Both the position numbers and the translations under genes were made by a program. A stretch of DNA of 64,000 bases from a virus: the UHGV virus genome UHGV-0036582; one strand, written 5' to 3'. Shown here in pieces: positions 3,472 through 62,296 of this stretch. Below the pieces are notes generated by a model, which ran no database searches, was not told where the DNA came from, and was given only the letters and a program-made list of their open reading frames with translations. The stretch's first letter is position 1. The number at the start of each line of letters is the position of its first letter.

Positions 3472-3597
3472 ACAACCTCAACGAGAATTAGTTTAGAAAC
3501 AAGTTCTCATTAGTTTTTTAATATATATAGGTAAGTACACGCCTATTAATTGAGGGGTGAAATATGATATAAATCCGCCATCCCGATTTGGCTTTTC

Positions 3598-3933
3598 ATG
3601 GAGGAAAACATGTCGAACGAGATGGCGGGCGTTACAACAGAGCAAGTTGAGCGTATTGCCGCGATCGTTGCTCGGGAGGTTGTTGGCAAATTAGGTAAAG
3701 AGCTACGTGAAGAAATTGGCCAGGAGGTCAACGATCAGCTGAAAACCTACTTTGGTGATATGACCCCGGCGCAACATAGTATTCAACACTCCAACCTGGA
3801 CAAACTCCTTAACCGGTTAGATTCCATCTCAAGTGGGTTCTTTGGCGGCATTGTTTCTAAAATAACGTCGTTCATTATTACCGCACTGCTTTTGGGGTTA
3901 GCCGCGTATGGCGTAAAAAATGGACTGCAATAA
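3598..3933 (+). CDS. Small membrane protein with C-terminal TM helix, possible holin or lysis regulator
   Basis: 111 aa; hydrophilic N-terminus and one hydrophobic helix ITSFIITALLLGLAAYGV near the C-terminus; sits directly upstream of the putative endolysin and spanins. Confidence 0.35.
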   Translation: MEENMSNEMAGVTTEQVERIAAIVAREVVGKLGKELREEIGQEVNDQLKTYFGDMTPAQHSIQHSNLDKLLNRLDSISSGFFGGIVSKITSFIITALLLGLAAYGVKNGLQ

Positions 3934-3946
3934 CAGGAGATCAAGG

Positions 3947-4639
3947 ATGAAGACTCCGAGAGGCATTCGTAATAATAACCCCGGTAATCTTGATAAAGGA
4001 TCACCGTGGCAAGGTCTGGTTGCGAATCCAGACGAACCGCGCTTTTGCACGTTTAAAGACCCTGTTTGGGGGATTCGTGCACTGGCGGTGACTCTAATTA
4101 CCTACCACGACAAGCGTCGCGCAAAAGACGGCTCAAGTATCGATACCATTCGTGAAGTTATTGAACGTTGGGCACCGCCGAATGAAAACAACACTGACGC
4201 CTACATTAATGAGGTGTCTAAAGCCGTTGGTGTAACCGCAGACATGATTATCGATCTGCATGATTACGACATTCTTCGACCTTTGGTTGAGGCAATCATT
4301 CGCCATGAGAATGGGCGAGGTCCGCTAAAAACGCTGAACACCTGGTATGCGGCAGAAGTTATTGAGGAAGGTCTGCGTCGAGCTGGCGTCGTTAAGCCGG
4401 TGAAAACCGTGAAGGCTGTTCCTGTAACTAAAGAAACGGCAGGCGCAACTGTTACAGCAGGTATTGGTCTGGCGCAGCTGGCCGATGTTATGCCGCAGGT
4501 TTCCGCTGCTATGGATAAAGCACAAGGTCATATCTCTAGCGGGGATACAGTACGCATCATCTTCGGTATTGCCACTATTGTTGTGGCTGGATTTATCGCC
4601 TGGTCGCAGGTAAGAAGACACCAGAAAGGGATGGTCTAA
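3947..4639 (+). CDS. Putative endolysin or cell-wall hydrolase with C-terminal membrane anchor
   Basis: Start moved to the ATG at 3947, which has an AGGAG RBS at 3935-3939. N-terminal RNNNPGNL motif, C-terminal hydrophobic helix IIFGIATIVVAGFIAWSQV. The call rests mainly on position between the membrane protein and the spanin pair. Confidence 0.4.
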   Translation: MKTPRGIRNNNPGNLDKGSPWQGLVANPDEPRFCTFKDPVWGIRALAVTLITYHDKRRAKDGSSIDTIREVIERWAPPNENNTDAYINEVSKAVGVTADMIIDLHDYDILRPLVEAIIRHENGRGPLKTLNTWYAAEVIEEGLRRAGVVKPVKTVKAVPVTKETAGATVTAGIGLAQLADVMPQVSAAMDKAQGHISSGDTVRIIFGIATIVVAGFIAWSQVRRHQKGMV

Positions 4640-4640
4640 T

Positions 4641-4892
4641 ATGCTAGGCAGCCTGATGACAAAGCTAAAAGTTGCTTTGATTACGCTGGCTGCCGTTCTT
4701 TTCGTTCTGGTCGGCGCTTACACGATGGGCGGAAATGCGGCGCGACGAGCAATGGAAGAGAAGGCAAAACAGGAAGACAGGAAACGACTTCAAAGCACAG
4801 TGGACGTCAAAAATGAAACACTTGATGAGTTACGGCGCAAGGATGCTTCTACTGTTCATCATGAGTTGCACAATAAGTGGTTGCGTGATTAA
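4641..4892 (+). CDS. i-spanin (Rz-like): N-terminal TM helix plus periplasmic coiled coil
   Basis: 83 aa; TM helix LKVALITLAAVLFVLVGAYTM followed by a charged helical region; the o-spanin gene is nested in its 3' end in the +1 frame. Confidence 0.7.
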   Translation: MLGSLMTKLKVALITLAAVLFVLVGAYTMGGNAARRAMEEKAKQEDRKRLQSTVDVKNETLDELRRKDASTVHHELHNKWLRD

Positions 4893-5043
4893 GCCTCAAC
4901 CCGCTGGTGTGCTTTTCTGCGATGCGGCTACACCGCTATACATCAGCCGTGATGATCTCATGACCGAAGAGACTGAAAGAGAGGTGCTTTTTCACAATAT
5001 GATTGGGGAGCGATTGTGTGGATGGGGCAGAAAAGTGCCATAA
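4813..5043 (+). CDS. o-spanin (Rz1-like) outer-membrane lipoprotein, overlapping the i-spanin gene
   Basis: ATG at 4813 inside ORF 4735..5043; signal peptide MKHLMSYGARMLLLFIMSCTISGC with a lipobox Cys; Pro-rich mature part; classic overlapped Rz/Rz1 layout. Confidence 0.65.
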   Translation: MKHLMSYGARMLLLFIMSCTISGCVIKPQPAGVLFCDAATPLYISRDDLMTEETEREVLFHNMIGERLCGWGRKVP

Positions 5044-7628: not shown

Positions 7629-8396
7629 TTATGCCGCGCTAACACTATGTTCAGTCCTAACCACTCCAACCTTCACAAAAGGGCTACCGTAGCTTGGTGG
7701 CTTCTTGATTAATTTGCCAACATACAGTTTTCTAATATGCTCATCGGCTATTCTGCCAACAAATTCATAACGTTTTGTGTCGGGGCCAAGAGCTATATCC
7801 CTTGTAAAGTACTGCTGAGAACCGGCTTTGACCCAGCATTCAATCTGATAAACTTCCATTATCAGCCCACCATATGTAGCGTAGGCATATTTGAGATTCT
7901 CGTCTCTTGGAACCTTTGCCCATACGCCACGCGTAGCTTCATATAATGCCAGAGCGGACATTCCTGACTTGTAGGTGCTGTTTAGCAGGAAGGCAAGACC
8001 GGCGTGCTCAGGAGCAATTTCAGTTTCCTCTTGCAGCACTAAGTGATGGTAGGCGTCCAGTGATATTCTGCCCATCATGGAACCACTTCCTCGTACCTTA
8101 TTCGTAAGCTCTCCGACCCCCATAAGGTCGATGCATGTCGCCTCAACAAGTTTGGCTGTGGTTTCATCCATACCATGACGAAGTATATCTATGCCTAATT
8201 TTTTATTAGCCAAAAGTTCTTTGATCCGCATGGATTTGGGAGAGTCATCGGGATACTTGATGTGATCGAGACAACGAGTCGATTTGCCTTTTCCTATGTA
8301 AAACGGTCTTTTCATCTTGTCTTCTGTATCATAGAGACAGTAAACATAGTATTTAGCCTTATCCAATGATCTCGCGTATACCGATAAATCGTCCAT
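7629..8396 (-). CDS. GIY-YIG nuclease-domain protein with an uncharacterised C-terminal domain
   Basis: N-terminus YYVYCLYDTEDKMKRPFYIGKGKSTRCLDH matches the GIY...YIG...R...H pattern; about 150 aa of unrecognised C-terminal sequence. Confidence 0.6.
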   Translation of the reverse strand: MDDLSVYARSLDKAKYYVYCLYDTEDKMKRPFYIGKGKSTRCLDHIKYPDDSPKSMRIKELLANKKLGIDILRHGMDETTAKLVEATCIDLMGVGELTNKVRGSGSMMGRISLDAYHHLVLQEETEIAPEHAGLAFLLNSTYKSGMSALALYEATRGVWAKVPRDENLKYAYATYGGLIMEVYQIECWVKAGSQQYFTRDIALGPDTKRYEFVGRIADEHIRKLYVGKLIKKPPSYGSPFVKVGVVRTEHSVSAA

Positions 8397-8504
8397 TATT
8401 GCATCTCTTAGCTACTGACTAATGCGTTCTATTTTACACATAAGTTTTTAATCAATTTAACAGGCTCAAAGTGTAGAGCTTCTGGGCGTCTAAGACGACA
8501 AGTT

Positions 8505-8562
8505 ATGCCTGCTTCTGTATATATTTAATAAGTTACTTATTATTTATATATACAGAAGCAGG
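8505..8562. repeat. Perfect 17-bp inverted repeat (cctgcttctgtatatat) around an AT-rich loop; a near-identical copy lies at 55689-55750
   Basis: Arms cctgcttctgtatatat / atatatacagaagcagg; the loop contains ataagttacttat, related to the genome-wide palindromic motif. Confidence 0.7.
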
Positions 8563-8671
8563 TCTTTTAAAAAGACACCCACCAGAACAACTCCCTTCCG
8601 TTTCCACTTCCAAAAACTGTCACCAGTCGCTATCATCCGCTCATTGTGATAAGTAAGTAACTACCTACCAG

Positions 8672-13097: not shown

Positions 13098-13278
13098 TTT
13101 TGGATTTTCACAAGATGGTTAGGTGGTTGTGGCTACTCGGTGTAAGGCTTTGTAATCACCGATTGGTAAGGTTACTTCAATTTAGCTTAACTGTCAGCAT
13201 ACCCAATCGCCGAAAAGATAAGTAGATGATTACTTATTGGTGTGTAAGAATACTGCCATCTGTTAGCTAGGAGTTGGT

Positions 13279-14061: not shown

Positions 14062-14128
14062 GCTCTCTGTGTGTCGTTTTTTACGCAAATAATGATAGGT
14101 AAGCACAAGATTATTTCTGGCGGTAATT

Positions 14129-16566: not shown

Positions 16567-17342
16567 AAACATCTCGATAAGTATTTACTTACTTATCTTT
16601 TATGTATAAGATGACTTTGTTTTCGTTGAGACGCGACTGTTTGAACTTAAATACAAGTGCAAACGAAGAAGTCTATCTGGCAGTAGCCTAATAAGCCAAA
16701 CACCAGCGAGGTCAGTTTCCAGCCTCGTTACCGAAATGGGACACACTGAGCGAGTGTGATTGCAGAACGCAGGAGGGAACATTCATGTTCCCTCCGATGA
16801 AGTAACAGAATGGGCGGTTGGTATATTTTCAACTCCATATGACTCCCGGATTCTTAGCCACTGACCGCCCATCCTGTTACGTCATTTTGTTCAATTATGT
16901 CGTTTATACTGGGTTAAAAAGCGGCGACGTAGCCCGGCTGGTATGGTTAGCCAGCACACAACGTTGAGGCCATTACATTTTTATCAATTCTAAGGTTCTA
17001 TTCACAGAGATACCGGCGAGCGTTGATATGTAACATGTTGGGCAAACATTCAATCGGAGTAGTGGCCTCAACGTTGTGAAGACGGGATTGTTGTGTAGGT
17101 TTAACCACTGTTGCCATTGGTGCCTGTTTTCACAACAAATGATTCCATACATCACATTGTATAAATTACAAAGTAGGTGCTGTCCTCAGAAACATCATCT
17201 ACTTAAAGATTTTGCCTTCTATTGAGCGAAGTCGAAAACGTCTGGCACTAACGGAAAGTGCAAGTAGCGGTGCGTTTCCTGGCAGAAACTAACACCGCCG
17301 CGATTGGCACTGTTGAGTAATAAATACTGGCAGTGCTGAATT

Positions 17343-17417
17343 GATGGTGTAGCTCAGCGGTAGAGCAGTTGGCTGTTAACCAACTGGTCGGTGGTTCGAA
17401 TCCACCCACCATCGCCA
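17343..17417 (+). tRNA. tRNA-Asn (anticodon GTT)
   Basis: Hand-folded cloverleaf: acceptor gatggtg/caccatc, D-arm gctcagcggtagagc, anticodon stem gttgg/ccaac with loop ctGTTaa, T-arm ggtggttcgaatccacc, encoded CCA. Confidence 0.8.
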
Positions 17418-17422
17418 ATTTA

Positions 17423-17509
17423 GGGGAGTTAGTCCGTAGGGGCAGCGGGGTAGACTGTAAATCTACTGTCATTGCGACTCGGGTGGTTCGACTCCATCAC
17501 TCCCCACCA
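17423..17509 (+). tRNA. tRNA-Tyr (anticodon GTA), long variable arm
   Basis: Acceptor ggggagt/actcccc, anticodon stem gtaga/tctac with loop ctGTAaa, long variable arm, T-loop ttcgact, encoded CCA. Confidence 0.7.
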
Positions 17510-17513
17510 AATT

Positions 17514-17589
17514 GCCGGTTTAGCTCAGTTGGTAGAGCGCCTGCCTTGTAAGCAGGATGTCAGCGGTTCGAGTCCGCTAACCGGCACCA
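17514..17589 (+). tRNA. tRNA-Thr (anticodon TGT)
   Basis: Acceptor gccggtt/aaccggc, D-arm gctcagttggtagagc, anticodon stem cctgc/gcagg with loop ctTGTaa, T-arm agcggttcgagtccgct, CCA. Confidence 0.8.
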
Positions 17590-17814
17590 ATACAACGATA
17601 AGATCATTACGGTTAATCGTCGTTCATGTGCACAATGACTGGTCGAAAGGTAGTGATCTTACCGTTGTGGTGGATTCGCAGACTGATGCGATAGCTTTCT
17701 TGGATGTTAGGGAAATGCGGCCGCAAATCTTCCCTTTCGCGAGCGGTGATCGTCCGTAGTCCTAATTGGCTGCACCGTATGCCGGAGATTCAGTACCGGC
17801 CACCACAACGGCCG

Positions 17815-17901
17815 GAGAGTAGGGAGCATGGTGCTCAAGCGGTCTTGAAAACCGTCCCATTGCGCAAGCGATGATGGTTCGATTCCATTACTCTCCGCCA
17901 G
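17815..17901 (+). tRNA. tRNA-Ser (anticodon TGA), long variable arm
   Basis: Acceptor ggagagt/actctcc, anticodon loop ctTGAaa, long variable arm, T-arm gatggttcgattccatt, CCA; some stems rely on G-U pairs, so less certain. Confidence 0.6.
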
Positions 17902-18054
17902 ACACAGCGTTGAGCGGTTTGGCCTTTTAATCAACTCGATTAAGACTCCGCTAACATAAACCAGACCGCTCAACGCTGTGATAGACAATTACGGCAGACG
18001 TTCTTAACCATAGCTTGCTAACATCCTAGCAACACTTTTTTCAGCGCAAAATTC

Positions 18055-18078
18055 AAAGGGGCTTCGGCCCCTTTTTTG
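18055..18078. terminator. Bidirectional rho-independent terminator between the tRNA cluster and the convergent minus-strand gene
   Basis: aaaggggc-ttcg-gccccttttttg: GC stem with an A-tract on one side and a T-tract on the other. Confidence 0.8.
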
Positions 18079-19355: not shown

Positions 19356-19529
19356 GTATGTATTTCACTCTACTAACTATAAAATATTAGGCTAATGTTA
19401 ACCAAACAATGCCTTAATTAATAGATTGATCGAGGCTTTAATAGCTTTATAATGCAGACTGTAAAGATAAGTATGCACATACCTATCTTCTTTGTAAGTA
19501 AAGTTGCATATCAATTCTATGAGGTAACA

Positions 19530-19985: not shown

Positions 19986-21089
19986 ATGAAAAATAGCTTT
20001 GACAGAGCACGCGCTGCGGAGAACACCTCAAAAGAGGCGATAGAGTATCTCGAAAGAGCATCTCAAATGCAGGCCGTTATGATCTCCCAGGTCAGCAATG
20101 ACATGAGATTCTCGGACGCATTCATGTTATTCACTCGCTTATCTCTGCTGATAACCAGACGTCGGCCAGAGATCGCTGTTCATTGTATTTTGATACATGT
20201 TTTGCCGCACCTTGCCGATGTAAAAGTAAGTGACATTAATAGGTTCATGGTGAACCAACTGGTCAACCCACTAATACTGGATGGCAAAATTGTTATGGGC
20301 CGCCGCGTTTTCTCTCTGATGAAGCAGTTCCTTAGCTGGTGCGCCTTCCAGGGGATGATAGACGTGTCACCGTTAAACGATATGTCACTTAACAATGTTG
20401 CCGGTGGCGCAAAGCCCACACCTCGCGAGCGGAAGCTGACCGACGCAGAGGTATGGGTGTTCTGGAATATATGGGACTACTTCAATGTGTGCGCTGGTAC
20501 AAAATGGGCGGCCAGGCTATGTCTTGTATCCGCAAGACGACCTGACGAAGTACTGCGGGCTAAAAAAAGTGAGTTCAACCTCCAGCGTGGGGTTTGGAAT
20601 CAAGGCAAGAGAAACAAATCAGCCCGTGAGCATTCTCTGCCTTTAAGCACATTAATGCGCACATGCATTGAAGAGTTATTCGAATATGGTAAAGGCAGCC
20701 AGTGGCTTGTGCCTTCGAATAAAAAAATCGGGAATGATCTTCCGATGTCTAAAGTGGCAATAGCCCAGGCATTACGCCGTATCCTGGAACGACCAGAACT
20801 GATGGAGCTTGAGCCATTTACACCCCGAGATTTGCGTCGTACTGCGCGTAGTTACTTCCCAGCATTAGGCATAAGCCAGGAGGTATCACGCAAAATCATG
20901 AACCACAGTCTTGAGGGGATAGATCGGGTCTACGACCGGCACGATTATATGGACGAGATGCGAGACGCCTTAGAAAGTTTCTCGACGTACATCGCATCAA
21001 TCGTAGAGCAACCGGATTTAGACGAAATTGACCACAAATTCAAGGGAGATCGTCTATCAACAGAGCTTATTCGTGTAAATTTTTCATAG
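19986..21089 (+). CDS. Tyrosine recombinase (integrase or resolvase family)
   Basis: Segments consistent with the catalytic R..K..H.R..H..Y set: VSARRPDEV, PRDLRRTARS, MNHS, RVYDRHDY. Confidence 0.75.
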   Translation: MKNSFDRARAAENTSKEAIEYLERASQMQAVMISQVSNDMRFSDAFMLFTRLSLLITRRRPEIAVHCILIHVLPHLADVKVSDINRFMVNQLVNPLILDGKIVMGRRVFSLMKQFLSWCAFQGMIDVSPLNDMSLNNVAGGAKPTPRERKLTDAEVWVFWNIWDYFNVCAGTKWAARLCLVSARRPDEVLRAKKSEFNLQRGVWNQGKRNKSAREHSLPLSTLMRTCIEELFEYGKGSQWLVPSNKKIGNDLPMSKVAIAQALRRILERPELMELEPFTPRDLRRTARSYFPALGISQEVSRKIMNHSLEGIDRVYDRHDYMDEMRDALESFSTYIASIVEQPDLDEIDHKFKGDRLSTELIRVNFS

Positions 21090-21470
21090 AGACTTTATGG
21101 CCTCAACAACCTTTTGTGATGCGCCTTTCTCTTTACCGAATCGCTCGTTATATGCAGCAAGAACCTGTTTTTCGTCCTCGTTAAGAGGCGCAGTGCCTTC
21201 TTTGTATAAAAATGCTGCGAGTTCAGGTTGGCGTTCTTCCAGCACCATCATCATAAGACGACTTGGCTCAATACCCAGCGCCAGCGCCAGCGGACGAACC
21301 TTATCGATAGGCAAAGGAATTTTGCCACTTTTAATTAAAGAAAGGTTGTTGGCATTTTTATAACCAATAAGTCTAGCTATTTGGGCCTGACTCATAGGTG
21401 AGGATTCAATCAGCCCTGCGATAAAAGCAGCATAGCGACTTTCTATAAATTCAATCTTGTTGTCAGACAT
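21084..21470 (-). CDS. Helix-turn-helix DNA-binding protein, possible transcriptional regulator
   Basis: 128 aa; HTH-like segment SQAQIARLIGYKNANNLSLIKSGK; convergent with the recombinase gene. Confidence 0.5.
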   Translation of the reverse strand: MSDNKIEFIESRYAAFIAGLIESSPMSQAQIARLIGYKNANNLSLIKSGKIPLPIDKVRPLALALGIEPSRLMMMVLEERQPELAAFLYKEGTAPLNEDEKQVLAAYNERFGKEKGASQKVVEAIKSL

Positions 21471-21721
21471 TGTTACAACCTTTGCGCGTTTAATTCTCTC
21501 TGGTAAGTGCTTACCGATATTACATCAAAGGTTAGGGTTGTAAAGCTATTATCATTTTTTTCGGCAGGCACTTGTAAGACCGAGCAAAGGCCCACGCATG
21601 GAGAAAAACTAGCCCAAAATAGGTAAGAAAATTAACTTGCATCTGATATGGATGTATTCAGTATTGATATAATTTTTAGTAGTATTCCTTACCATAGTAT
21701 AAGTTAGAATGGATTGATTGA

Positions 21722-21934
21722 ATGAACACCACTATTTCCAGCCTAATCGCTCTTGAGATCGGACACGTACAAAAATTAGCTGATGAATGTGTAGCTGACA
21801 TTCTCACCGATCTACCGAATGAGCAGATTCAGGTTGGTGTGAATGACACAACTGGCTTTATATTCGAACTTAACAACAAACGCTTCACGCTTCTCAATAC
21901 CGGCTCCGGGTCTTTAGCCGTCAGAATCTGTTAA
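21722..21934 (+). CDS. Hypothetical small protein
   Basis: 70-aa ORF after an AT-rich intergenic region. Confidence 0.3.
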   Translation: MNTTISSLIALEIGHVQKLADECVADILTDLPNEQIQVGVNDTTGFIFELNNKRFTLLNTGSGSLAVRIC

Positions 21935-22032: not shown

Positions 22033-24132
22033 ATGTCTAAAAAACGTTCCATCAAAGAGGTTCAGGACTTCCGTGACAGTGTAAAACGAGTAGTCGCTCT
22101 CCTTTCAGGTAAAAACATCCCTGTTGCAGAACGAGGGGACGACGCTTATGTACGCTATAACGATGATGGAGAGCCAATTCTCGTAAACATCCCATCAATC
22201 CCGGATAACGCAACACCAGCATTGATGAATGCTGTGCGCGGATTTCTCGATCATGAGGTTGCTCACATTTTGTTTACCGATATTCATGTGTCCAACAAAA
22301 TGAGAGAAAAAGGACGCGTTCCTTCCTGGTCGCTATGGAATGCCTTAGAAGACGTGTTTATCGAGCGAAAAATGGGGCAGGTCTTTAACGGAACAAGACG
22401 TAATCTGATGGCAACTCAGCGCCTTATAATCGAAAAAGTCTTTAAACCAAAGGCTTCAGAGGCTATTACTTATTGTGGCAAAGATCAGCGCGCGCTTTTT
22501 CTAAACTTCTTTCTCTGTCCGGTTGTAAGAGCCTGGGATGGCCAAGCACCGTTCGTAGATTTCATGGATGAATACTGGCCTGTCATTGAGAAACCAATTT
22601 CATTATTAAAAGAACATGGTATCGATGTGGCCGTGCGTAACATGTCTTGCACCGGGGATTGTTTAAAGGTGGCTGCGACCATCGCTAAGATCCTCAAAGA
22701 CACAGAAAGTGAAAGCAAAGGTAAGGAGTCAGCTCCGGGAAAAACTTCCGATCCTTCAGACGCTGATCACGCGGATTCCTCTGGAGAAGGCGATGAAGAT
22801 CACAAGACACCCGAATCGTTAGATAATCACATATCTATTAAAGAAAATTCAAAAGGTAAGCACAAATACGATAATAACAACAGTGATAATTCAGATAACT
22901 CTGAATCATCAGAAACAATATTCGATGATACAGAAAATGATAAAGAGGTATCAGATTCTGGTGCTTCTGATAACGCGGCGTCAGAAGCATTGACCACTGA
23001 CCACGAAAAAAGAAAATCGACAGAAGACGGCTCTTCAGACATTCCAACTCCGTCAAAAATGAGTCTGGAAGAGGCTTTAGAGGAGTTGGATAGCATGGAA
23101 GATGAAGTCGGAGGCATGACAGAAGATGCGCTATCCGAAACGATTAAAAGCGAGTTAACAGAAAGCTCGAAAAGCGAATACAGGCCATACAATCGCTCAT
23201 ACGACTTCATCGGCTCGATTGATCAGGCAGAAGCCCATATCAAACGGCTTATTAAAACATTCTCCGATATTGATTTAGGTGGATATCCAATCAGCCGTTA
23301 TCGCATCGTTCCTGAAGGCAACCAACTCTTCGACAAATATATTGAAAAGCACCTTTCGTCAGGTGTTTCGTCGACGCTGGCAAAAGACCTGGAACGTGCA
23401 ATAGCAAGCAGAAACAGAGTTCAGTTTATACCTGGCCAGCGTCGGGGGCGCATTCATGGTTCAAGTATCTACAGATTAACAATGAATGATGATCGCGTGT
23501 TTCGTAAAAAAGAAGAATCTAAAGCCGTTAACGCCTGTGTTCAACAAGTGATTGATTTATCAGGTTCAATGAGTGGTATAACGATACAATTGGCTCTTGC
23601 AAGTGCATATACCATCGCCGATGCCCTTGATCGAATAAATGTTCCCAACATTATCACCGGCTTCACTACATTTGGTAGTCATATGGCGGCAGGAGAACTT
23701 AAGGCTGTCAAGTATGAGTTCTCTCGCTTTGAATCTTTAATGCTACCTATCATCAAAAATTGGAATGAAAAGGTAAATTCTCGCGAAGTTCGCTCACGTA
23801 TGGGGTGCGTAGGCTACACATTCCCACTTCTTAATAACGTGGATGGTGAAAGCATAGCCAGCCTTGCATCGTTATTTTCCGGTCGCATGGAGGACAGGAA
23901 GATCATGCTTGTTCTGAGTGATGGCGCGCCGTGGGCTGTTGGGAGAGGTTTTGACGCTCATTTGCGTTCGGTTGCGAAGCAAATTGAAACGCAGACTGAT
24001 ATTGATTTGATGGCAATTGGCATCATGACTGACGCACCGGAGAGATTTTACTCAAATCATGCCCTGGTAACGAGCGTTGATAGTCTTGGTTCATCTGTAG
24101 TTACTGAACTATCTCGTATCATTTTAAAGTGA
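22033..24132 (+). CDS. vWA-domain protein (CobT-like) with acidic low-complexity linker
   Basis: 699 aa; MIDAS-like motif DLSGSMSG; central Asp/Glu/Ser-rich tract; followed by an AAA+ ATPase gene, the usual CobS/CobT-like pairing seen in large phages. Confidence 0.65.
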   Translation: MSKKRSIKEVQDFRDSVKRVVALLSGKNIPVAERGDDAYVRYNDDGEPILVNIPSIPDNATPALMNAVRGFLDHEVAHILFTDIHVSNKMREKGRVPSWSLWNALEDVFIERKMGQVFNGTRRNLMATQRLIIEKVFKPKASEAITYCGKDQRALFLNFFLCPVVRAWDGQAPFVDFMDEYWPVIEKPISLLKEHGIDVAVRNMSCTGDCLKVAATIAKILKDTESESKGKESAPGKTSDPSDADHADSSGEGDEDHKTPESLDNHISIKENSKGKHKYDNNNSDNSDNSESSETIFDDTENDKEVSDSGASDNAASEALTTDHEKRKSTEDGSSDIPTPSKMSLEEALEELDSMEDEVGGMTEDALSETIKSELTESSKSEYRPYNRSYDFIGSIDQAEAHIKRLIKTFSDIDLGGYPISRYRIVPEGNQLFDKYIEKHLSSGVSSTLAKDLERAIASRNRVQFIPGQRRGRIHGSSIYRLTMNDDRVFRKKEESKAVNACVQQVIDLSGSMSGITIQLALASAYTIADALDRINVPNIITGFTTFGSHMAAGELKAVKYEFSRFESLMLPIIKNWNEKVNSREVRSRMGCVGYTFPLLNNVDGESIASLASLFSGRMEDRKIMLVLSDGAPWAVGRGFDAHLRSVAKQIETQTDIDLMAIGIMTDAPERFYSNHALVTSVDSLGSSVVTELSRIILK

Positions 24133-24227
24133 ACAAAACAGCCTTAATGATAAGTAACCACTTACGATAGATAATGATATATTTATATAAGAAGTTGAAC
24201 GCTCATTAGAGAACAAAGGAAAAACGC

Positions 24228-29719: not shown

Positions 29720-29836
29720 TTTTTGATAGATAATAAGTAAGTACTGATCTATCATTTAACAGCTCGAAAGAGCCACGAATGAACGAAAGCCCAACGCGCA
29801 TAGCGCCATCGGCCAAATCACAACAAGGAGAAACAC

Positions 29837-33242: not shown

Positions 33243-33304
33243 TCTCTTGAAAATATATAAGTACTTACTTATTATTTTCGCATAACAACCACATAGGAAA
33301 ACAC

Positions 33305-36456: not shown

Positions 36457-36517
36457 ATATATCTTTGCTTTATTTTTTCAAAGGTGATTATTTTCCTATT
36501 TATAAGGAGAAGTAAAC

Positions 36518-37274: not shown

Positions 37275-37313
37275 GTTTACAGTAAAATTTATATAAGTTA
37301 GTATCTACCTATC

Positions 37314-40677: not shown

Positions 40678-40931
40678 CCCTCCAGATCGTATATTGGCGT
40701 AGATAGAATCTACGCCTCCTCAAAATAGCTCTCATAGCGTTCTACAGTGATCCTGTCTTATTTTTAGTCATACAGACAAGCAAAGTTGCGCCACAATAAA
40801 TAGGTATATACTTACTTATAAATTTTGTATATTAAGATGCTCGTTTCATTCCTAACATACCGTTATGCATAGTTGTTTACCTTCTCATTGCTCTTAAAAT
40901 TTGTATCAAAATAACCACAAAGGAAAAACAC

Positions 40932-45490: not shown

Positions 45491-45524
45491 TTTCATTGAT
45501 AGGTAAGTGCTTATCTATTAACAT

Positions 45525-49206: not shown

Positions 49207-50076
49207 ATGAACTTTACCAAACTGACTGACCACCTGAAACTTGCCACCGATCGTCTCATTGGATTTAAGCCAGAACCATATGAGTTGCATGAAGGTCATG
49301 GTGTAGCTACTGAAAGTATTTACAAGATGGTCGATCAGTTTCATGAACTCTTCCAGCATCCGAGACGCGTTATGCCGACACCAGAGCTGCTTCGTCTCCG
49401 TGCAAGCCTGATTCATGAAGAAGCTGTAGTGGAAGGTATTCCAGCCGCAATGAATGGGGATATTGAGCAACTGCTGGATGCAATGGCCGACTTTTTATAC
49501 GTTGGTGTTGGTACGATGGTCGCCATCAAAGGTGGTATTTCTACCGGCATGACCTATTACACGCAGGAACAGAGCATTGATCGCTTTATGCAGACAATTT
49601 TTGTGCCCGGTAACACTGTTTTCGATGATATGGCAATGCCATTTCAGGAAGCTCGTGAGGCGTCATATATGCTCGAAGAGCTGGCAGATAAACTTGAGAA
49701 CAAGACTGTTAAGGATTCTGAGCTGATTCAGGAACTGCGCCGTGTCATGAACAAAATCTATGTGGCGTGCATGATGACCTATCGACTGGCTGATTTCCTC
49801 GGTATCAATGTAGTCGAGCTGGTTGGCGAAATTCATCGGTCTAACATGACAAAATTATGGCCTGCTGATGTCGAGGAACGTCGCCAGGCTGTGGCCAACT
49901 GCAAATACGACTCTTCAGACCTGGGATTTCGCCATGCTGATGGTACCGATAAGATGATCGGTTTTCGAATTTCCGATGGAAAGATTCTGAAGTCTCCAAC
50001 CTATAGTGATGTCGATTTATCCTCCTTTGTTGAGCAAGCTAAAGCCTCAGCAATGTACGGAATGATCAAAAAATAA
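49207..50076 (+). CDS. Possible MazG-like all-alpha nucleotide pyrophosphohydrolase
   Basis: 289 aa; acidic helical segments EEAVVEG...DIEQLLDAMADFLYV loosely resemble the MazG/HisE EExxE...D motif; tentative. Confidence 0.3.
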   Translation: MNFTKLTDHLKLATDRLIGFKPEPYELHEGHGVATESIYKMVDQFHELFQHPRRVMPTPELLRLRASLIHEEAVVEGIPAAMNGDIEQLLDAMADFLYVGVGTMVAIKGGISTGMTYYTQEQSIDRFMQTIFVPGNTVFDDMAMPFQEAREASYMLEELADKLENKTVKDSELIQELRRVMNKIYVACMMTYRLADFLGINVVELVGEIHRSNMTKLWPADVEERRQAVANCKYDSSDLGFRHADGTDKMIGFRISDGKILKSPTYSDVDLSSFVEQAKASAMYGMIKK

Positions 50077-50144
50077 TTGTAGGTAGTTATCTATCTATGT
50101 ATATTGTGTTAGCGCGTTAAATTCCTGAAACAACTATTCGTTTT

Positions 50145-50169
50145 GGTGGCCTATGGCCACCATTTTTTT
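50145..50169 (+). terminator. Rho-independent terminator
   Basis: ggtggcc-tat-ggccacc then attttttt. Confidence 0.8.
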
Positions 50170-50219
50170 ATCTATCTGGCCTTGTTCCCTCAATAAATGT
50201 AAACTCACGCAATGAATAA

Positions 50220-51350
50220 GTGATTACTTATCTTTGTGAGGTTTTTGTGTCACTCCTTTTGAATCGTGAGCATACGAACGGTCAGGTAACAAACGCATCG
50301 TATGCAAAAGTTATTGAGACGGTGCTTAAAAGCGGCGTGCAGGCTGATGATCGCACAGGCACTGGTACTTTAAGCACCTGCTACGTTCCCTCTTACTACA
50401 TGCTTACTGGTGGGACTGTGCCGCTTATTTCTGGAAAGGCGGTAAATCTTAAGCCACTGCTTGTCGAACTTGAGTGGTATCTGAAAGGCACGGGCAACAT
50501 CCAATTTCTCAAGGATAACGGCGTTAAGATTTGGGATGCATGGGCCGATGAGAATGGCGATTTGGGGCCGGTTTACGGTAAGCAGTGGCGTCGATGGGAA
50601 GATACCCGCATCGTGAGCCATAGTGAATATCTGAGCAAGATCGCTACTTTCCGTGAACGCGGGTACAAAGTCGAGGGATACCTGGGTATCAGTGAAGATC
50701 GCGTAGTGCTGTCCCGTGAAATCGATCAGCTACAGCGTATTGTCGATACACTGCGCACGAACCCTACCGATCGTCGCATCATGCTTAACGCATGGAACGT
50801 AGGCGAGCTTGAGGATATGAAACTGCCACCTTGCCACTTTGTCTTCTCTTTGTGGAGTCGTGAACTGGATTTTGAAACCCGTTTAACGATGGCAACTGAC
50901 ATTGGTCTACAACACAGTCGCCTCGGTTATGAGTCTATCTACACCAAGATGCTATACGATCTGGAGATGGACGGCAGTGTTACTGAAACTGAACTGGATG
51001 AACTTGGAATCCCCAAACGCATCCTCAACTCCTGCCTCGTACAGCGTAGCGTAGACACTTTTGTTGGTATGCCATTCAATATTGCTGGCTATGGCATTCT
51101 CACTCATTTTCTCGCGAAGATTACGGGTCACATGGCCGGTGCATTTGTGCATTTTGGCTTTGACGTGCATTTGTACAACAACCACATGGAAGGTGTGTGT
51201 GAGCTAATGCAACGACAGGCTCCAGAGCATTCAGATCCGGTCGTTATATTCCCTAATGAATGGTCTGAGCTGGATGATTTCAAATGGGACGAGATTCTTA
51301 TTCTTGGCTATGCCCCTCTACCGTGGATCAAGGTTCCAGTGGCGGTGTGA
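50220..51350 (+). CDS. thyA: Thymidylate synthase homologue with insertions (start codon uncertain)
   Basis: DRTGTGTLS, WADENGDLGPVYGKQWRRWE, NAWNVGELEDMKLPPCH and MPFNIAGYG match ThyA blocks; two insertions of about 30 and 45 aa relative to E. coli ThyA as recalled. Confidence 0.8.
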   Translation: MITYLCEVFVSLLLNREHTNGQVTNASYAKVIETVLKSGVQADDRTGTGTLSTCYVPSYYMLTGGTVPLISGKAVNLKPLLVELEWYLKGTGNIQFLKDNGVKIWDAWADENGDLGPVYGKQWRRWEDTRIVSHSEYLSKIATFRERGYKVEGYLGISEDRVVLSREIDQLQRIVDTLRTNPTDRRIMLNAWNVGELEDMKLPPCHFVFSLWSRELDFETRLTMATDIGLQHSRLGYESIYTKMLYDLEMDGSVTETELDELGIPKRILNSCLVQRSVDTFVGMPFNIAGYGILTHFLAKITGHMAGAFVHFGFDVHLYNNHMEGVCELMQRQAPEHSDPVVIFPNEWSELDDFKWDEILILGYAPLPWIKVPVAV

Positions 51351-54898: not shown

Positions 54899-55081
54899 CG
54901 TTCCCCTACTTAAAATAAAGCCCATAGAGAGCTTTATAGTACTGGGTAAGCCAATCACATACCCAGCACTACAAAAACGCGCCAGAGAGCTTCTCGTTTG
55001 CATTTCTGGCGCGTTTTATTTGATTGCCAGACATAAAATCAAATGCAAAAATAGGTATATACTTACCTATCGAGAAAGAAG

Positions 55082-55688: not shown

Positions 55689-55750
55689 CTGTAATTAGCC
55701 TGCTTCTGTATATATAAATAACTACATATTAATTATTAATATACGGAAGC
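55689..55750. repeat. Second copy of the 17-bp-arm inverted repeat (agcctgcttctgtatat / atatacggaagcaggct)
   Basis: Arms share the core cctgcttctgtatat with the element at 8505-8562; one arm mismatch; AT-rich loop. Confidence 0.65.
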
Positions 55751-55836
55751 AGGCTGTTTTGTATCAGAGACTCCAGACCTGAACATCACTACAGAATCCA
55801 CTAGAACCCCTTCCCAGACGCTTTAAAATCGATTTT

Positions 55837-56091
55837 ATGAACCACTTTAAGGAAACCAACATGTCATACCCGACTAATGTCGTTGCGCTCGTAGAGAGCG
55901 ATTTTCTGGCCCAGGCTCGTGAAATGATGAAAGATCGTGAGCAGGCTTTCAACTTGTACGAATGGGCAATTAAGTGCTTGCATCTTGGCGAGCATCGCGA
56001 ACTTGTTGAACAGCTTTTAGGTGAGTTGATCAATGAGGTGTTTGCCTTGAATGTTCAACTACATGGTAGAGAAAATAATCAATCACAATGA
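55837..56091 (+). CDS. Hypothetical small protein
   Basis: 84-aa ORF. Confidence 0.4.
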   Translation: MNHFKETNMSYPTNVVALVESDFLAQAREMMKDREQAFNLYEWAIKCLHLGEHRELVEQLLGELINEVFALNVQLHGRENNQSQ

Positions 56092-56675
56092 TAGATAAGT
56101 ACAAACTATTCATAAAGTGAATTGTAAGTGCTAAGATCTGATAGTTTCCAGTCGTAGACTGGAGACTCGACCTGATGGGTGGGGGTAAGCGTCACTGGCG
56201 TCAGGTTTAAAAAAGCTCACTACCAGCGTAGAACTGGTGCCGTTTAGGTGTCGGGGAAGGGGGGAACCAAAGTGAGCAGAGACAAGGGTCACTTTATGAT
56301 TGTCGAGTCTGGGGTGTTTCGAGAGGTTGAATCCAGTACTCCCCTTCATAAAGTGTGGGAAGATCTCGGTTCTGGGGTGCTGTCATCCATAACTTCCCAA
56401 GTCTAAGCTGGCAGTAGACTTAGACCATAACTTTTCAGGTTATGAAACGACCAGGTTGGTGAGAGATTTTTATACTCACCTCCCTGGGAGAGTATTACCT
56501 GAAAAGACAACCTCTCACTTCGTTCGAGGTGAACTTCACTCACTTCGTTCGTTCAGTTCAGGTTTATAAAAACCTGTTCTGGGAAGTAATTTGTTTATTT
56601 TAATAATTATTAACACGCACGCGTGTGCGCACGCGCGAGGAAAAATCGGCGCGGCGCTTGATTCAGGAGTTTATA

Positions 56676-57265
56676 TGACGACGAAGACACCAGCCCGATC
56701 GCAAGCAAAAACTCGCAAAAAAGCCAAAAACAAAAATTCCCCCCGCACCAATCCCACAACGCCTGTCGTAGAGTTCAATCCCCAGCTTAAAACCGTGAAA
56801 ATCTTTAGTGATGGCTCTTGCCTTAAAAATCCGGGTGGCCCGGGCGGTTACGGTATCGTTCTCCAGTATCGTGGTGAGGAACGCGAGTTCTCAGATGGTT
56901 TTCATAGCACCACCAATAACCGCATGGAGATGATGGGGGCACTTATCGGGCTGGAGCGTTTGAAATATCCATGCAACGTTATTTTGCACTCTGATAGCCA
57001 GTATCTGAAAAACGGCATGACACAGTGGATGAAATGGTGGAAACGCAATGGATGGATGACTTCTGACAAAAAACCGGTAAAGAATGTTGATCTGTGGAAG
57101 CGTCTGGATGAGGCCGCAAGTCGACATAATGTTCGCTGGAAGTGGGTTAAAGGCCACGCCGGGCATCGTGAAAATGAAATATGCGATCGACTCGCGAAGA
57201 TCGCAGCTTTTTCAGCAGCAGATATGCCTCACAAGAAAGATATTGGTTTTGTTTATAATAAGTAG
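56676..57265 (+). CDS. rnhA: Ribonuclease HI
   Basis: Start set at the ATG at 56676; [26 protein letters not shown] and [20 protein letters not shown] match RNase H catalytic blocks. Confidence 0.85.
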
Positions 57266-57413
57266 TAAGTAAGTGTTTACCTATCATTTTAAATCATGTA
57301 TCTTATCGGCGTCAGGATGACAATGTGTCGGTAAGACACAGTTCCAGGATGGAACGAGAAAGGCGGCTGGCAATCGCCAGCCGCAACTCTTTCTGACACT
57401 GGATGGGGTCCAC

Positions 57414-59829: not shown

Positions 59830-59831
59830 TT

Positions 59832-60446
59832 ATGTTCGGGATGTCAATTACTCAATCAGATGGAAGTTTGTGGATGAGTCCAGAATTTACTCCGCAAAAT
59901 CTGATTAATAAAGGGACAATGTCTACATCTAAAGGTTCTGTTTTTCAAACATCAATCCCATCAAACAAATCATGCTTTTTCTTCATAAAAAGCAGTAATA
60001 AGGCGAACATGATGTTTATTCATGAGCATAGTAACGGATACAATGCTCTCAGATTGCATCAGGTAAATGGTAGCCCCGGAACAATAACAGTTTATGCTTT
60101 TTCTGATATGGTGTTACCACATTCTGGCTATGGCATTGCCATGTATAACAGCGCAGGCGCAATGGTGTATCACGGTGAGATGATGCCCCTTGATGCGAAA
60201 CTTATCACTATTTCGGACCCTCAATTTACCATAGATGTGGGGTATCCGTGTGCGGTAATGCCTGCTATGGTTGGGGTTTATAACTATAGACGAACCGATT
60301 ACGACAGACCTGTCTATGTAACTATGACCGGTGCAACTGGAAACCAAGTATATAACGGTCAATGGTATTCCGGTAATGTCACATGGGATATTAAGAAGAT
60401 TTATACAAACAAAATCCTGGTTATAAATACCTCAAAGTATGATTAG
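59832..60446 (+). CDS. Hypothetical protein (AT-rich gene)
   Basis: Start set at the ATG at 59832, directly after the previous stop; 204 aa. Confidence 0.4.
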   Translation: MFGMSITQSDGSLWMSPEFTPQNLINKGTMSTSKGSVFQTSIPSNKSCFFFIKSSNKANMMFIHEHSNGYNALRLHQVNGSPGTITVYAFSDMVLPHSGYGIAMYNSAGAMVYHGEMMPLDAKLITISDPQFTIDVGYPCAVMPAMVGVYNYRRTDYDRPVYVTMTGATGNQVYNGQWYSGNVTWDIKKIYTNKILVINTSKYD

Positions 60447-60508
60447 CAAATACCTTTATTTAAAGGATTGCCTGTTAATTTCTATTTAGCACCTTTTCAT
60501 TTTTGAAA

Positions 60509-60550
60509 TAATTGCACCATTAAACAAATCTTTTCTTAATGGTGCAATTA
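60509..60550 (+). promoter_or_regulatory. Perfect 15-bp-stem hairpin covering the translation-initiation region of the methyltransferase gene
   Basis: taattgcaccattaa ... ttaatggtgcaatta; the right arm ends at the A of the ATG at 60550. Confidence 0.5.
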
Positions 60551-62235
60551 TGAATACAGCTCTTTCCATCATCGACGATGCCAACTCAAACACTGCTATC
60601 GATTATCGTCAGGAAATGAACGTCATCCACGAAATTGTGGCCGAGTGCGAGAAGGAGATCGCCTTCATGTATCAGGTTCACGACTTCGTTTATGGAGACG
60701 AACGCCACAACATGATTAATCGCCTGCTGCAACTGAACCACCGACCAGATGAAGAACGCTCACGTTTGAATCGAGCTTGGCTGGATAAAGTCGATCTGGA
60801 ATGGGTGAAACAGAATATTTGGGCCGAGTACTGGAGGAAGGTCACGGATATGACTAACGTTCTGCTGATCATGCCAGCTTCCCGTCGCGACGAGTGGCGT
60901 GAGCAGTTTATCGAGGGTAAGCAGGAAGTCATCAAAACTGACAGAACCGGCTATCAGATGAAGGTAAAAGAGTTCGTTGGTGTACCGGAGTTCAAAGCAG
61001 AAACGGTCATACCCACGATGCTTAATTTGCTGAATGACAGGCACAAATATCTCTCTGAGCGCGTGTATGGCTTGTTTAAGGCGCTGAGTCCTGCGCACAA
61101 GACAAATAAGACAAACGGTTTCAGCGAACGTCTGATAATCGCTGACTGCATTTCTGATTTCTGGCGGGACAGCGTTAGTGTGAACTATCGCAAAGAGGAC
61201 TATATCGACGATCTGCGTGTCTTGCTTCATTTCTTCGCGCACAAAGAATTTATTACCATCAACCGCACTGCTGAGGTGCTATCAGCTGCGTATCGGGCAA
61301 ACGACTGCCAGACCGGTGACTGGATGAACGTCGATGGAAATCTGATGCGCGTGAAGATGTTCAAGAACGGCAACGTTCACTTTGAAATACATCCTGACGT
61401 GGCCTGGAAGTTGAATGAGGTGCTGGCTTACAGTATGCCTGCTGCAATCCCCGCGCCATGTCGCACCGCGCCAAAAACACGGGCACCAAAGCAGTTCGGG
61501 TTAATCCAGAAGACGATCTCCGTGCCGGTTCGCACTGCGCTTCGTGACGGGCGATTGAGCAAAGACAAAGGCGTATGGTACTTCTCTGATTCAGCTCTCC
61601 AGAAGTCGCAGGTGGAAGAGCTTGAGCGCACACTGAGCTTCATTGGCGGCGTGCAGGAGAAAAAGCACTGGCAGTTCCCGTATGACATCGTCCATACGCT
61701 AAATACGATTGTGGCTACCGGTTTAATACCGGATACAAAATCACACCAGTTCTACCCTACCCCACGCTTGATTGCTGAGTACGTTGCCAGAGCCACTGAA
61801 TTGAAGTCTGGTGAGAAGCTGCTGGAGCCTCAAGCCGGACGTGGGGATCTTCTGGCCTATATTAACGCCGATCTGGAAGATGTTACCTGCATAGAAATCG
61901 CACCTCTCTTCGCTGATATCCTGCGTGGAAAAGGGTATACGAACACGATTTGCTGCGACTTCATAAAGTGGTCTGAGGACAACGTAGGTTATCAGTTCGA
62001 CAAAATCGTTATGAACCCGCCGTATTCGCTTGGTCGTCATAGAGAGCACACGCTGGCTGCGCTGGGGCATCTGAAAGTCGGCGGGCGTCTTGTAGCAGTA
62101 TTGCCGGGCACTGCGCCAATACTGGACTGGATGACGATGGATAATTACGTTTATGCCAGAGGGAAGTCGTTTACCAACGAGTTTGAAGACACAGGGATCA
62201 CAGTCAGCGTATACGTTTTCAAACGCGTTAAATGA
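60550..62235 (+). CDS. Orphan DNA methyltransferase (N6-adenine type) fused to a large N-terminal domain of unknown function
   Basis: C-terminal 150 aa carry QFYPTPRLIAEYV, SAM-binding LLEPQAGRGDLL and catalytic IVMNPPY; the N-terminal 400 aa or so have no recognisable motif. Confidence 0.7.
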   Translation: MNTALSIIDDANSNTAIDYRQEMNVIHEIVAECEKEIAFMYQVHDFVYGDERHNMINRLLQLNHRPDEERSRLNRAWLDKVDLEWVKQNIWAEYWRKVTDMTNVLLIMPASRRDEWREQFIEGKQEVIKTDRTGYQMKVKEFVGVPEFKAETVIPTMLNLLNDRHKYLSERVYGLFKALSPAHKTNKTNGFSERLIIADCISDFWRDSVSVNYRKEDYIDDLRVLLHFFAHKEFITINRTAEVLSAAYRANDCQTGDWMNVDGNLMRVKMFKNGNVHFEIHPDVAWKLNEVLAYSMPAAIPAPCRTAPKTRAPKQFGLIQKTISVPVRTALRDGRLSKDKGVWYFSDSALQKSQVEELERTLSFIGGVQEKKHWQFPYDIVHTLNTIVATGLIPDTKSHQFYPTPRLIAEYVARATELKSGEKLLEPQAGRGDLLAYINADLEDVTCIEIAPLFADILRGKGYTNTICCDFIKWSEDNVGYQFDKIVMNPPYSLGRHREHTLAALGHLKVGGRLVAVLPGTAPILDWMTMDNYVYARGKSFTNEFEDTGITVSVYVFKRVK

Positions 62236-62296
62236 TAGGTAAATACTTACCTAATTTGTGTAAGAATGTAGTTACTAAACGATAAGAGAAAAACAC

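Follow-up and report, generated by a model that had tools for sequence, protein, structure and literature searches.

The repressor of mycobacteriophage L5 and its cluster A relatives acts at more than 20 operator or "stoperator" sites, which occur throughout the phage genome both at promoters and within short intergenic spaces, and silences both the initiation and the elongation of transcription in the prophage (PMC9283540). D29, a lytic mycobacteriophage related to L5, has lost this repressor through a deletion (PMC5712189). Here we have analysed a palindrome with a similar genome-wide distribution, found in a stretch of 64,000 nucleotides of the virus genome UHGV-0036582 (called the window from here on), which sequence identity places in an SSU5-type phage-plasmid of Escherichia coli. 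We lean, if only slightly, towards reading this palindrome as the operator of a dimeric repressor, encoded by the element itself, that would silence the lytic units of the plasmid prophage.

The L5/cluster A network is the closest working analogue. The likeness lies in the presence of more than 20 copies of one site across a phage genome, at promoters (in our case predicted ones) and in short intergenic spaces, and in the fact that SSU5 has no gene for the candidate repressor and yet has kept the sites, a situation reminiscent of D29. However, the L5 sites are asymmetric 13-mers oriented with transcription, whereas those described here are symmetric, 20-22 bp long and have no orientation bias. 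The L5 repressor is a monomer with a helix-turn-helix (HTH) and a "stoperator" domain, whereas our candidate is an unrelated Xre-type protein of 128 aa with a single HTH, presumably a dimer. The hosts here are Proteobacteria, the prophage is a plasmid, and the block of elongation is in our case only a proposal. Given the asymmetry and orientation dependence of the L5 sites, and their recognition by a monomer with two domains, the palindrome network is not a member of the L5 family.

Among phage-plasmids the closest analogue is P1, a plasmid prophage with many dispersed operators, in which one repressor, C1, controls many operons from more than a dozen sites scattered over about 100 kb. The P1 operators are asymmetric 17-mers, C1 is not of the Xre type and the late genes are separately controlled by Lpa, whereas in the element described here the same site is also found within the virion and lysis gene blocks. 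A third comparison is with the Xre/Cro-C1 regulators (the 434 and P22 repressors, the C-proteins of restriction systems, HigA), which bind inverted repeats as dimers and have a fold similar to that of the model of our candidate. The sequence similarity is marginal, the candidate has no S24 autocleavage domain, and the classical proteins act on two to six operators within one control region, instead of the 25-50 sites found genome-wide here. We found no description of the motif or of the immunity control of SSU5-type elements in the literature, although a prior description is not fully excluded.

The element and the palindrome

The window shares 99.2-99.5% identity with "Escherichia phage CMS-2020a", 98.8% with phage Cyrano (pLF82, a plasmid prophage in E. 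coli LF82) and ca. 77% with Salmonella phage SSU5, and because of these identities we consider it a portion of an SSU5-type E. coli phage-plasmid of about 108 kb. Position 1 of the window corresponds approximately to 22.4 kb in Cyrano, and nearly all of its genes, which include those for tail fibre, lysis, parA, replication, recombination and nucleotide metabolism, are on the plus strand. Clinical E. coli, Klebsiella, Salmonella, Yersinia pestis (pMT1) and Acinetobacter commonly carry elements of this type, resistance genes occur in the group, and ca. 980 plasmids in PLSDB (982) encode a terminase TerL of the SSU5-like family.

The motif, which we call the class A palindrome, is 20-22 bp long, has the consensus aatGATAGGTAAGTACTTACCTATCatt with the core GGTAAG-TA-CTTACC, and is present in about 22 copies in the window (Table 1). 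A first-pass annotation of this DNA had pointed out 16 copies; all of them exist, within 0-7 nt of where they had been placed, and all score at least 12 bits with a symmetrised position weight matrix (PWM). There are five to seven more, among them three intergenic copies, one inside the cobT-like gene and one variant copy. The occurrence is far above chance. Searched with up to three mismatches, the exact consensus gave three matches against 0 in 100 dinucleotide shuffles, and with up to five and six mismatches it gave 12 and 13 matches against 0.0 and 0.07 in Markov shuffles. The iterated symmetrised PWM found 23 hits in the window at 12 bits or more (0.4 expected) and 22 at 14 bits or more (0.03 expected, a figure that is partly circular, as the matrix was trained on the same sites). 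Plain palindrome and k-mer enumeration was too insensitive to detect the motif, but dyad analysis (TAAGT-N4-ACTTA) succeeded, and so did a de novo palindromic search by expectation maximisation (EM) in the 82-nt windows that follow stop codons in Cyrano, which recovered ATAAGTAAGTACTTACTTAT, the same motif.

The copies had been described as strictly intergenic, and indeed 22 of the 23 PWM hits in the window lie between genes, as do 25 of the 27 copies in the annotated Cyrano genome, which is 86.9% coding (p = 2e-20), so that the motif is not equally frequent in coding DNA. A position within 30 bp after a stop codon, which had been given as the usual one, applies to only part of them: ca. 60% begin within about 30-40 nt of the preceding stop, and the rest are found in divergent or long intergenic regions. 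The motif is AT-rich and has no GC stem followed by a T-tract, as had been noticed; we therefore rejected it as an intrinsic terminator, the true terminators being separate neighbouring features. It does not match the LexA SOS box (CTGT-N8-ACAG) either, the class A consensus being GATAGGTAAGTACTTACCTATC. The PWM hits at 8527 and 55713 probably belong to a different element; each falls in the loop of a long hairpin with a GC clamp (-30 kcal/mol). The palindrome is, in any case, a sharp marker for this family of elements and for the boundaries of its transcription units.

A probable site in double-stranded DNA

We pooled 74 sites from Cyrano, SSU5 and the Klebsiella element pJN2-26. The position counts are mirror-symmetric (T7 is invariant in the 74 sites and A16 is found in 73, T3 in 72 and A20 in 71) and the two halves are equally conserved. 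At each of the 11 mirrored pairs the observed pairing equals that expected from independence, and compensatory changes are absent. The polymorphic pair 5/18, for example, is A-T in 20 sites, G-C in 16, A.C in 16 and G.T in 14, and overall mismatches of the A.C type (68) are as common as those of the G.T type (77). Folded as RNA, the 28-mers have a mean minimum free energy of -3.8 kcal/mol, with five of 19 copies weaker than -1.2 and several near 0. Rfam gave no match to the motif, and there is no bias of orientation within it relative to the direction of transcription.

As the mirrored positions vary independently, the hairpins are weak and Rfam has no match, it is the sequence of each half-site that is constrained and not base pairing. 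Judged from sequence, then, the class A motif is a site in double-stranded DNA for a symmetric homodimer, whose binding we infer, and the earlier proposal of a binding site for a dimeric regulator is supported. A structured RNA element was rejected, given base pairing without compensatory changes and the lack of an Rfam match.

Conservation in syntenic elements

The enteric relatives have 25-27 copies per genome (27 in Cyrano, 26 in SSU5 and 27 in pJN2-26), located in orthologous gaps. In the virion module, too, copies follow terL and the genes for capsid, tail completion, tail M and tail J, and the portal gene contains one at its 3' end. The motif is retained in a second, more distant Klebsiella clade, and it goes well beyond the enterics. 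A syntenic 111-kb plasmid of Acinetobacter baumannii has 34 copies of ATATTAGTAAGCGCTTACTAATAT (AGTAAG-CG-CTTACT), 30 of them intergenic (p = 3e-22) and about half beginning 7-24 nt past a stop codon. A syntenic 117-kb plasmid of Methylobacterium oryzae has 48 copies of AGTCAG-NN-CTGACT against 2.8 expected. Compared by sequence, a core aGTmAG-NN-CTkACt is thus common to elements from Alpha- through Gammaproteobacteria, with variable centre and flanks.

The virulent Pseudomonas phage ZY21 (Nickievirus) is also syntenic, and in its genome dyad analysis and EM found no comparable palindrome. Some of its gaps (positions 50656, 55981, 70211 and 85998 of the record) carry GCGCTC...GAGCGC inverted repeats with an AT-rich, -10-like loop (TTACAAT, ATTATT). 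These GC-rich repeats are preceded by "aaccccag" and may represent a different system of regulator sites at equivalent positions.

In 5426 complete E. coli genomes there were 640 matches at the BLAST level, all of them on SSU5-like plasmids of about 100-120 kb and none on a chromosome, and across 185,579 species genomes the exact consensus gave only chance-level hits. As all 640 E. coli matches are plasmid-borne, the binder should be encoded by the element and not be a host factor with its own regulon.

Transcription-unit boundaries and expression in the lysogen

The class A sites coincide with predicted sigma-70-type promoters and with the boundaries of transcription units. Over the 74 pooled sites, the best rightward sigma-70-like promoter overlapping the site scored on average 8.24 bits, against 6.75 in a mirror control (Wilcoxon p = 4e-5), and nine predicted promoters reached at least 11 bits, against none in the control. 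A -10-like element downstream of the motif (TGTAAGAAT or TAAGAT) was considered as a fixed companion and rejected, being present at only about seven sites and at variable distance. Strict intrinsic terminators adjoin only three or four sites per genome, on either side.

Expression data are available for the LF82 lysogen (PMC9928086, S1 Table), in which the prophage background (median) is 9.8. Levels 3' of class A sites are mostly at background, e.g., nrdA 7.6, sbcD 7.5, gp32 9.1 and holin 8.6. The change in RNA across the 22 class A junctions (absolute log2 difference of 1.9-2.0) exceeds that across 53 motif-free junctions (1.1); two conditions gave a significant difference (p = 0.003 and 0.014), and in one condition there was a mean drop of -1.03 across class A junctions against +0.40 elsewhere (p = 0.002). 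These larger changes indicate that the sites mark transcription-unit boundaries. In some conditions expression rises after some sites, by +2.5 log2 from Tc1 to the tail gene, +3.6 from recA to the next gene and +3.65 from hyp59 to hyp60.

A candidate binder

The HTH protein that the first-pass annotation had suggested as a regulator to be tried is, on comparative grounds, the best-supported candidate for the binder. Its gene is transcribed against the lytic genes, beside the integrase gene. The protein matches Pfam HTH_19 and HTH_37 weakly, below their gathering scores, and matches a PHROG family of "transcriptional regulator"; there was no sequence hit in the PDB. The predicted structure has a pLDDT (predicted local distance difference test) of 73.5, and its N-terminal domain superimposes on C.BclI, C.AhdI, C.Esp1396I, HigA and the 434 repressor domain with TM-scores, normalised to the length of the target, of 0.6-0.8; as modelled, it has the Xre/Cro-C1 fold. 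In the LF82 lysogen the Cyrano orthologue is expressed at 95.8, ca. 10 times the background. Moreover, in E. coli and in Klebsiella alike, the promoter of the gene carries a variant of the palindrome (Table 1).

In pJN2-26 (57% identity), the second Klebsiella clade (46%), Acinetobacter (38%) and Methylobacterium (36% over the HTH, pairwise E = 3e-8) a homologue occupies the corresponding place on the map; the family is found in all four plasmid-borne lineages that bear the motif. The region of the recognition helix is conserved, reading NANNLSLIKSGK in E. coli, NPNILSLIKKGR in pJN2-26, NANNISLIKSGR in the second Klebsiella clade, NQNMVSFIVRGK in Acinetobacter and KPNILSMFKRGE in Methylobacterium. 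In PLSDB 961 plasmids are positive for the HTH protein and 982 for TerL, with almost equal counts per genus. ZY21 has no homologue of the HTH protein, and the motif was likewise not found there. From these comparisons we consider the HTH protein the most likely binder, an identification to which we attach somewhat less confidence than to the existence of an element-encoded repressor.

Other proteins were tried and set aside. CYRAN_123 (88 aa, annotated as "DNA-binding") is present in all motif-bearing genomes, but is silent in the lysogen (7.8) and has no fold recognisable by sequence. A FljA-like regulator (PF03614) is confined to the enteric lineage, and its level in the lysogen is low (18). 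A phage sigma factor as reader of the motif was rejected since, although present in Acinetobacter and Methylobacterium, tblastn finds none in the enteric genomes, which keep the motif. This sigma-70-family gene is located between a cobS/MoxR-like gene and dnaE (32337-33002 in the Acinetobacter record, 8054-8680 in the Methylobacterium record), and the equivalent enteric gap has only about 180 nt (25464-25643 in the window).

Two observations concern the surroundings of the HTH gene. At the corresponding place in SSU5 (42525-42761, against ca. 17900-22030 in the window) the genes for glutaredoxin, integrase, the HTH protein and a divergent 70-aa protein are all missing. The 70-aa gene, an orthologue of CYRAN_46 (PHROG 2627), rises in the LF82 data from about 4.3 to 10.8 log2 in the 6-h macrophage condition, and its product is a candidate for a Cro-like or anti-repressor function of the switch region.

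Repressor, activator or another factor

In the mechanism that we propose, a homodimeric repressor encoded by the element, most likely the HTH protein, would occupy the palindromes, some 22 copies in the window and 25-27 per genome, located over or beside predicted sigma-70-type promoters of the lytic units, i.e., of the genes for replication, recombination, nucleotide metabolism, lysis and the virion. In the plasmid-prophage state the bound dimers would prevent the initiation of transcription. At the copies located within operons or right past stop codons they could act as roadblocks to read-through, and the variant copy on the promoter of the repressor gene would give negative autoregulation. 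Binding by a protein, the identity of that protein, repression rather than activation and any effect on elongation are all inferred, and we regard the core of the scheme, an element-encoded dimeric repressor on these operators, as only a little better supported than its negation. A wider version, possible in our view but distinctly more doubtful, is that of an ancient form of genome-wide silencing, common to SSU5-type phage-plasmids from Alpha- to Gammaproteobacteria, in which a small Xre-type dimer acts on 25-50 symmetric sites, serving both as operators and as orientation-independent roadblocks. It would be an independently evolved Gram-negative counterpart of the "stoperators", and SSU5-like lytic isolates would be repressor-deletion derivatives.

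The scheme matters for the choice between plasmid life and lysis in SSU5-like elements, for which an operator sequence, a candidate repressor and ca. 25 putative controlled units provide a testable model, with a bearing on immunity, on induction and on why SSU5 behaves as a lytic phage. If the copies inside operons do stop elongation, silencing of the "stoperator" type would not be peculiar to the cluster A mycobacteriophages.

Several facts weigh against a repressor of this kind. One type of operator before both early-type and late-type genes gives no temporal order, so that another layer of control must exist, perhaps the second class of palindrome described below. SSU5 keeps 26 good sites without the HTH gene; as it is a free phage genome, like D29, we read it as a recent derivative that has lost the repressor module, which is an assumption. 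Besides the HTH protein, the motif-bearing genomes have in common two ParB_N-domain proteins, CYRAN_123 and a 246-aa protein encoded before the helicase gene, and any of these might instead be the binder in the lytic phase. In AT-rich intergenic DNA the prediction of promoters is noisy, and in the window alone those of at least 6 bits are almost as frequent leftward or in mirror image (17) as rightward (19). Several copies are located between a stop codon and an intrinsic terminator, which is unexpected for a promoter operator. Finally, at most of the strong drops in RNA an intrinsic terminator in the same gap can explain the drop, so that these drops need not reflect a roadblock.

The alternative that fares best, unlikely as it appears to us, is that the palindrome is the site of a lytic-phase activator and defines a phage-specific class of promoters, comparable to the late promoters of P1 (Lpa) or the middle promoters of T4 (MotA). 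The lytic genes that follow the sites are silent in the lysogen, the rises in expression after some of them could be activation, and the site on the HTH promoter could equally mediate a Cro-like shut-off of the repressor. Moreover, the ends of the motif resemble -10 hexamers (TATCAT, TATTAT) and no convincing -35 accompanies them, which would fit activator-dependent promoters and is a further point against the repressor. However, the two ends are equally -10-like (3.3 bits on the right and 3.1 on the left, p = 0.46) even though nearly all genes face one way; for this reason we take the likeness to be part of the dyad and not a directional element, and a motif end serving as the -10 of a directional promoter was rejected. 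The geometry does not favour an activator either. Across sites the predicted -10 starts anywhere from -16 to +43 relative to the motif, though at identical positions in orthologous sites of three genomes (for example, the register TTGAAT-18-TATACT predicted before the major tail gene is conserved), and the distances to predicted -10 elements and start codons vary (0, 10, 11 to more than 100 nt). In Methylobacterium a strong -10 hexamer (GCTATAGT or TATAAT) is found upstream of nine sites, whereas the mirror image has one such case; at seven of these sites the hexamer ends exactly 1 nt before the core, and the start codon follows 12-40 nt further on. The palindrome would therefore cover the predicted start of transcription, a position where activators do not work and which is the geometry of a repressor. 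Activator sites need a fixed upstream geometry, so that the variable register, together with the location at or after the start, is the behaviour of a repressor operator. In addition, the virulent ZY21 shares this set of lytic genes, yet the motif was not found there, and no Lpa-like or MotA-like protein was seen among the proteins of the element (Pfam, PHROG). The promoter class that the first-pass annotation had offered as a second interpretation is not supported as it was formulated, given the symmetry of the motif and its variable position relative to -10, -35 and start codons.

We give little credence to the possibility that the two ParB_N-domain proteins use the palindromes as centromere-like or KorB-like sites, loading there and silencing or organising the genome. 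There is a precedent in the KorA/KorB regulon of the IncP plasmids, with identical palindromic operators before many operons throughout the plasmid, in which KorB recognises 12 scattered palindromes and can repress from a distance. The two ParB_N proteins are conserved in all motif-bearing genomes, and a class A copy (105106 in Cyrano) lies in the 82-bp gap before the ParB-like operon. However, neither gene exceeds the background in the lysogen (5.0 and 9.5), ZY21, in which the motif was not found, conserves both proteins equally well, and the genes head the packaging/late operon beside the terminase genes and are not with parA. To our knowledge the class A motif is unlike the known parS sequences.

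Less probable still is that the motif works as a hairpin in RNA or single-stranded DNA where genes end, be it as a weak terminator, as a site of processing, as a stabiliser or as a stem-loop to which a protein binds. Such a hairpin would suit a palindrome that so often follows a stop codon soon after and that in a few cases is directly beside a terminator, and the family of the conserved FljA-like regulator includes an mRNA-binding member in Salmonella, but the lack of covariation, the weak folding and the conservation of sequence rather than structure described above speak against it, and the FljA-like gene is missing from the motif-bearing Acinetobacter relative. Least probable of all is that a host global regulator or nucleoid protein binds the sites, since the shift of the motif sequence with the host group (enterics, Acinetobacter, Methylobacterium) has to be set against the absence of matches from the chromosomes of the 5426 E. 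coli genomes and the chance-level hits across species, and we know of no E. coli regulator with a similar consensus.

Coordinates of the features

Table 1. Class A sites and other features, in window coordinates except where another record is named. Coordinates of class A copies are those of the 22-mer in its best register; "Noted" marks the copies pointed out by the first-pass annotation.
Feature	Position	Strand	Bits	Noted	Context
Class A copy	3526..3547		24.8	yes	54 nt past tail-fibre stop, before holin/lysis genes; orthologous copy in Cyrano, SSU5 and pJN2-26
Class A copy	8648..8669			yes	Shine-Dalgarno AGGTGA and ATG (8681) directly 3'; predicted promoter TTCCAA-17-TATCAT upstream
Class A copy	13217..13238				Divergent intergenic region; TGTAAGAAT (extended -10-like) 5 nt downstream
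Class A copy, weaker right half	14094..14115		18.7	yes	32 nt past stop codon
Class A copy	16576..16597		30.0	yes	9 nt past stop; overlapped by predicted TTTACT-17-TAAGAT facing the tRNA cluster
Class A copy	19466..19487				Divergent region; just 3' of near-consensus predicted promoter TTGATC-16-TATAAT
HTH gene, 128 aa, Xre-type, candidate repressor	21084..21470	-			Adjoins integrase gene
Variant copy	21498..21519				On HTH-gene promoter; inner 14 bp (21502-21515) GGTAAGTGCTTACC, perfect palindrome; overlaps predicted leftward promoter TTTACA-16-TAATAT; kept in Klebsiella pJN2-26
Lone strong half-site AATAGGTAAGA	21618..21628	+	10.3		Top 0.1% of window; between HTH gene and divergent 70-aa gene, 100 bp from variant palindrome
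Class A-like copy	22818..22839				Inside cobT-like gene; similar cobT position in SSU5 and pJN2-26
Two overlapping degenerate copies (24149 and 24166)	24149..24187		13.6 and 17.1	yes	Between cobT-like and cobS-like genes
Class A copy	29732..29753		27.8	yes	12 nt past stop; upstream of gp32-like single-stranded DNA-binding protein gene
Class A copy	33252..33273		28.1	yes	Directly 3' of intrinsic terminator 33217-33237
Class A copy, weak	36479..36500		16.1		In 61-nt gap
Class A copy	37292..37313			yes	Abuts ATG of 59-aa gene; internal predicted promoter TTTACA-17-TAGTAT kept in three genomes
Class A copy	40799..40820		30.2	yes	5' of sbcD-like gene
Class A copy	45498..45519		30.4	yes	7 nt past ruvC-like stop; fills spacer of predicted promoter TTGATA-17-TAACAT, same register in three genomes; terminator 45525-45546 and then nrdA ATG (45564) downstream
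Class A copy	50074..50095			yes	Overlaps mazG-like stop codon; terminator 50144-50162 downstream
Class A copy	50211..50232		20.6	yes	thyX start 14 nt downstream
Class A copy	55050..55071		29.1	yes	dam-like start 10 nt downstream; predicted extended -10 promoter TTGCCA-17-AAAAAT, kept in three genomes, ends within the copy
Class A copy, degenerate	56090..56111			yes	5' of predicted promoter TTCATA-17-TAAGAT (with TG) of 420-nt non-coding region
Class A copy	57264..57285		26.7	yes	Overlaps RNase H stop; right half is the -35 of predicted TTTACC-17-TATCTT
Class A copy	62234..62255		28.9	yes	Overlaps stop of DUF4942 gene; TGTAAGAAT 4 nt downstream
Class B palindrome	6501, 9433, 22001, 34406, 47942, 58163, 58892, 63433				
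Four-tRNA cluster (Asn, Tyr, Thr, Ser)	17343..17900				3' of class A copy 16576 and its predicted promoter
70-aa gene	21722..21934	+			Divergent from HTH gene
Non-coding stretch, 420 nt	56140..56560	+			Between small gene and RNase H gene; strong predicted promoter beside class A copy 56090 precedes it
Long hairpin, two copies	8507..8563, 55699..55755				
FljA-like regulator	Cyrano 100780..101301 (L002 28781..29302)	-			Outside window

Other elements nearby

A second intergenic palindrome, class B (AAACAANTTGTTT, 13-mers), occurs eight times in the window, where 0.49 copies are expected, and Cyrano, SSU5 and pJN2-26 have 12-13 copies each. The arrangement around it is fixed, with a -10-like hexamer ca. 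14 nt upstream, "AAGA" just before the hexamer, and a Shine-Dalgarno sequence and ATG 15-35 nt downstream. It is often preceded by a terminator and precedes parA, the dnaB-like helicase gene, cobT, nrdB, tciA and terS. In Cyrano 21 gaps have class A only, nine have class B only and none has both. Levels 3' of class B sites in the lysogen are slightly above background (parA 50, helicase 21), and the class B palindrome is absent from the Acinetobacter relative. One may speculate that the FljA-like regulator binds there. This regulator matches PF03614 ("repressor of phase-1 flagellin") with E = 1e-80 and has a sub-threshold Hfq-like match at residues 122-164. Salmonella FljA acts on mRNA.

The tRNA cluster varies among relatives, with three tRNAs at this location in Cyrano and one in SSU5. 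The non-coding stretch before the RNase H gene folds with -153.5 kcal/mol (z = -4.25 against shuffles) and is a candidate structured non-coding RNA, with no match in Rfam. It overlaps the 44-codon "CYRAN_81", which is expressed at 12 times the background in the LF82 lysogen, and is 91-98% conserved in SSU5 and pJN2-26.

The long hairpins (CCTGCTTCTGTATATA...TATATACAGAAGCAGG, ca. -30 kcal/mol) have an AT-rich loop, which is what yields the false class A hits of the PWM, and a T-rich tail, and they are conserved in Cyrano, SSU5 and pJN2-26, each of which has two. We take them to be, in all probability, strong terminators or insulators, and across the first of them (CYRAN_30 to 31) the RNA of the lysogen falls by 3-7 log2 units.

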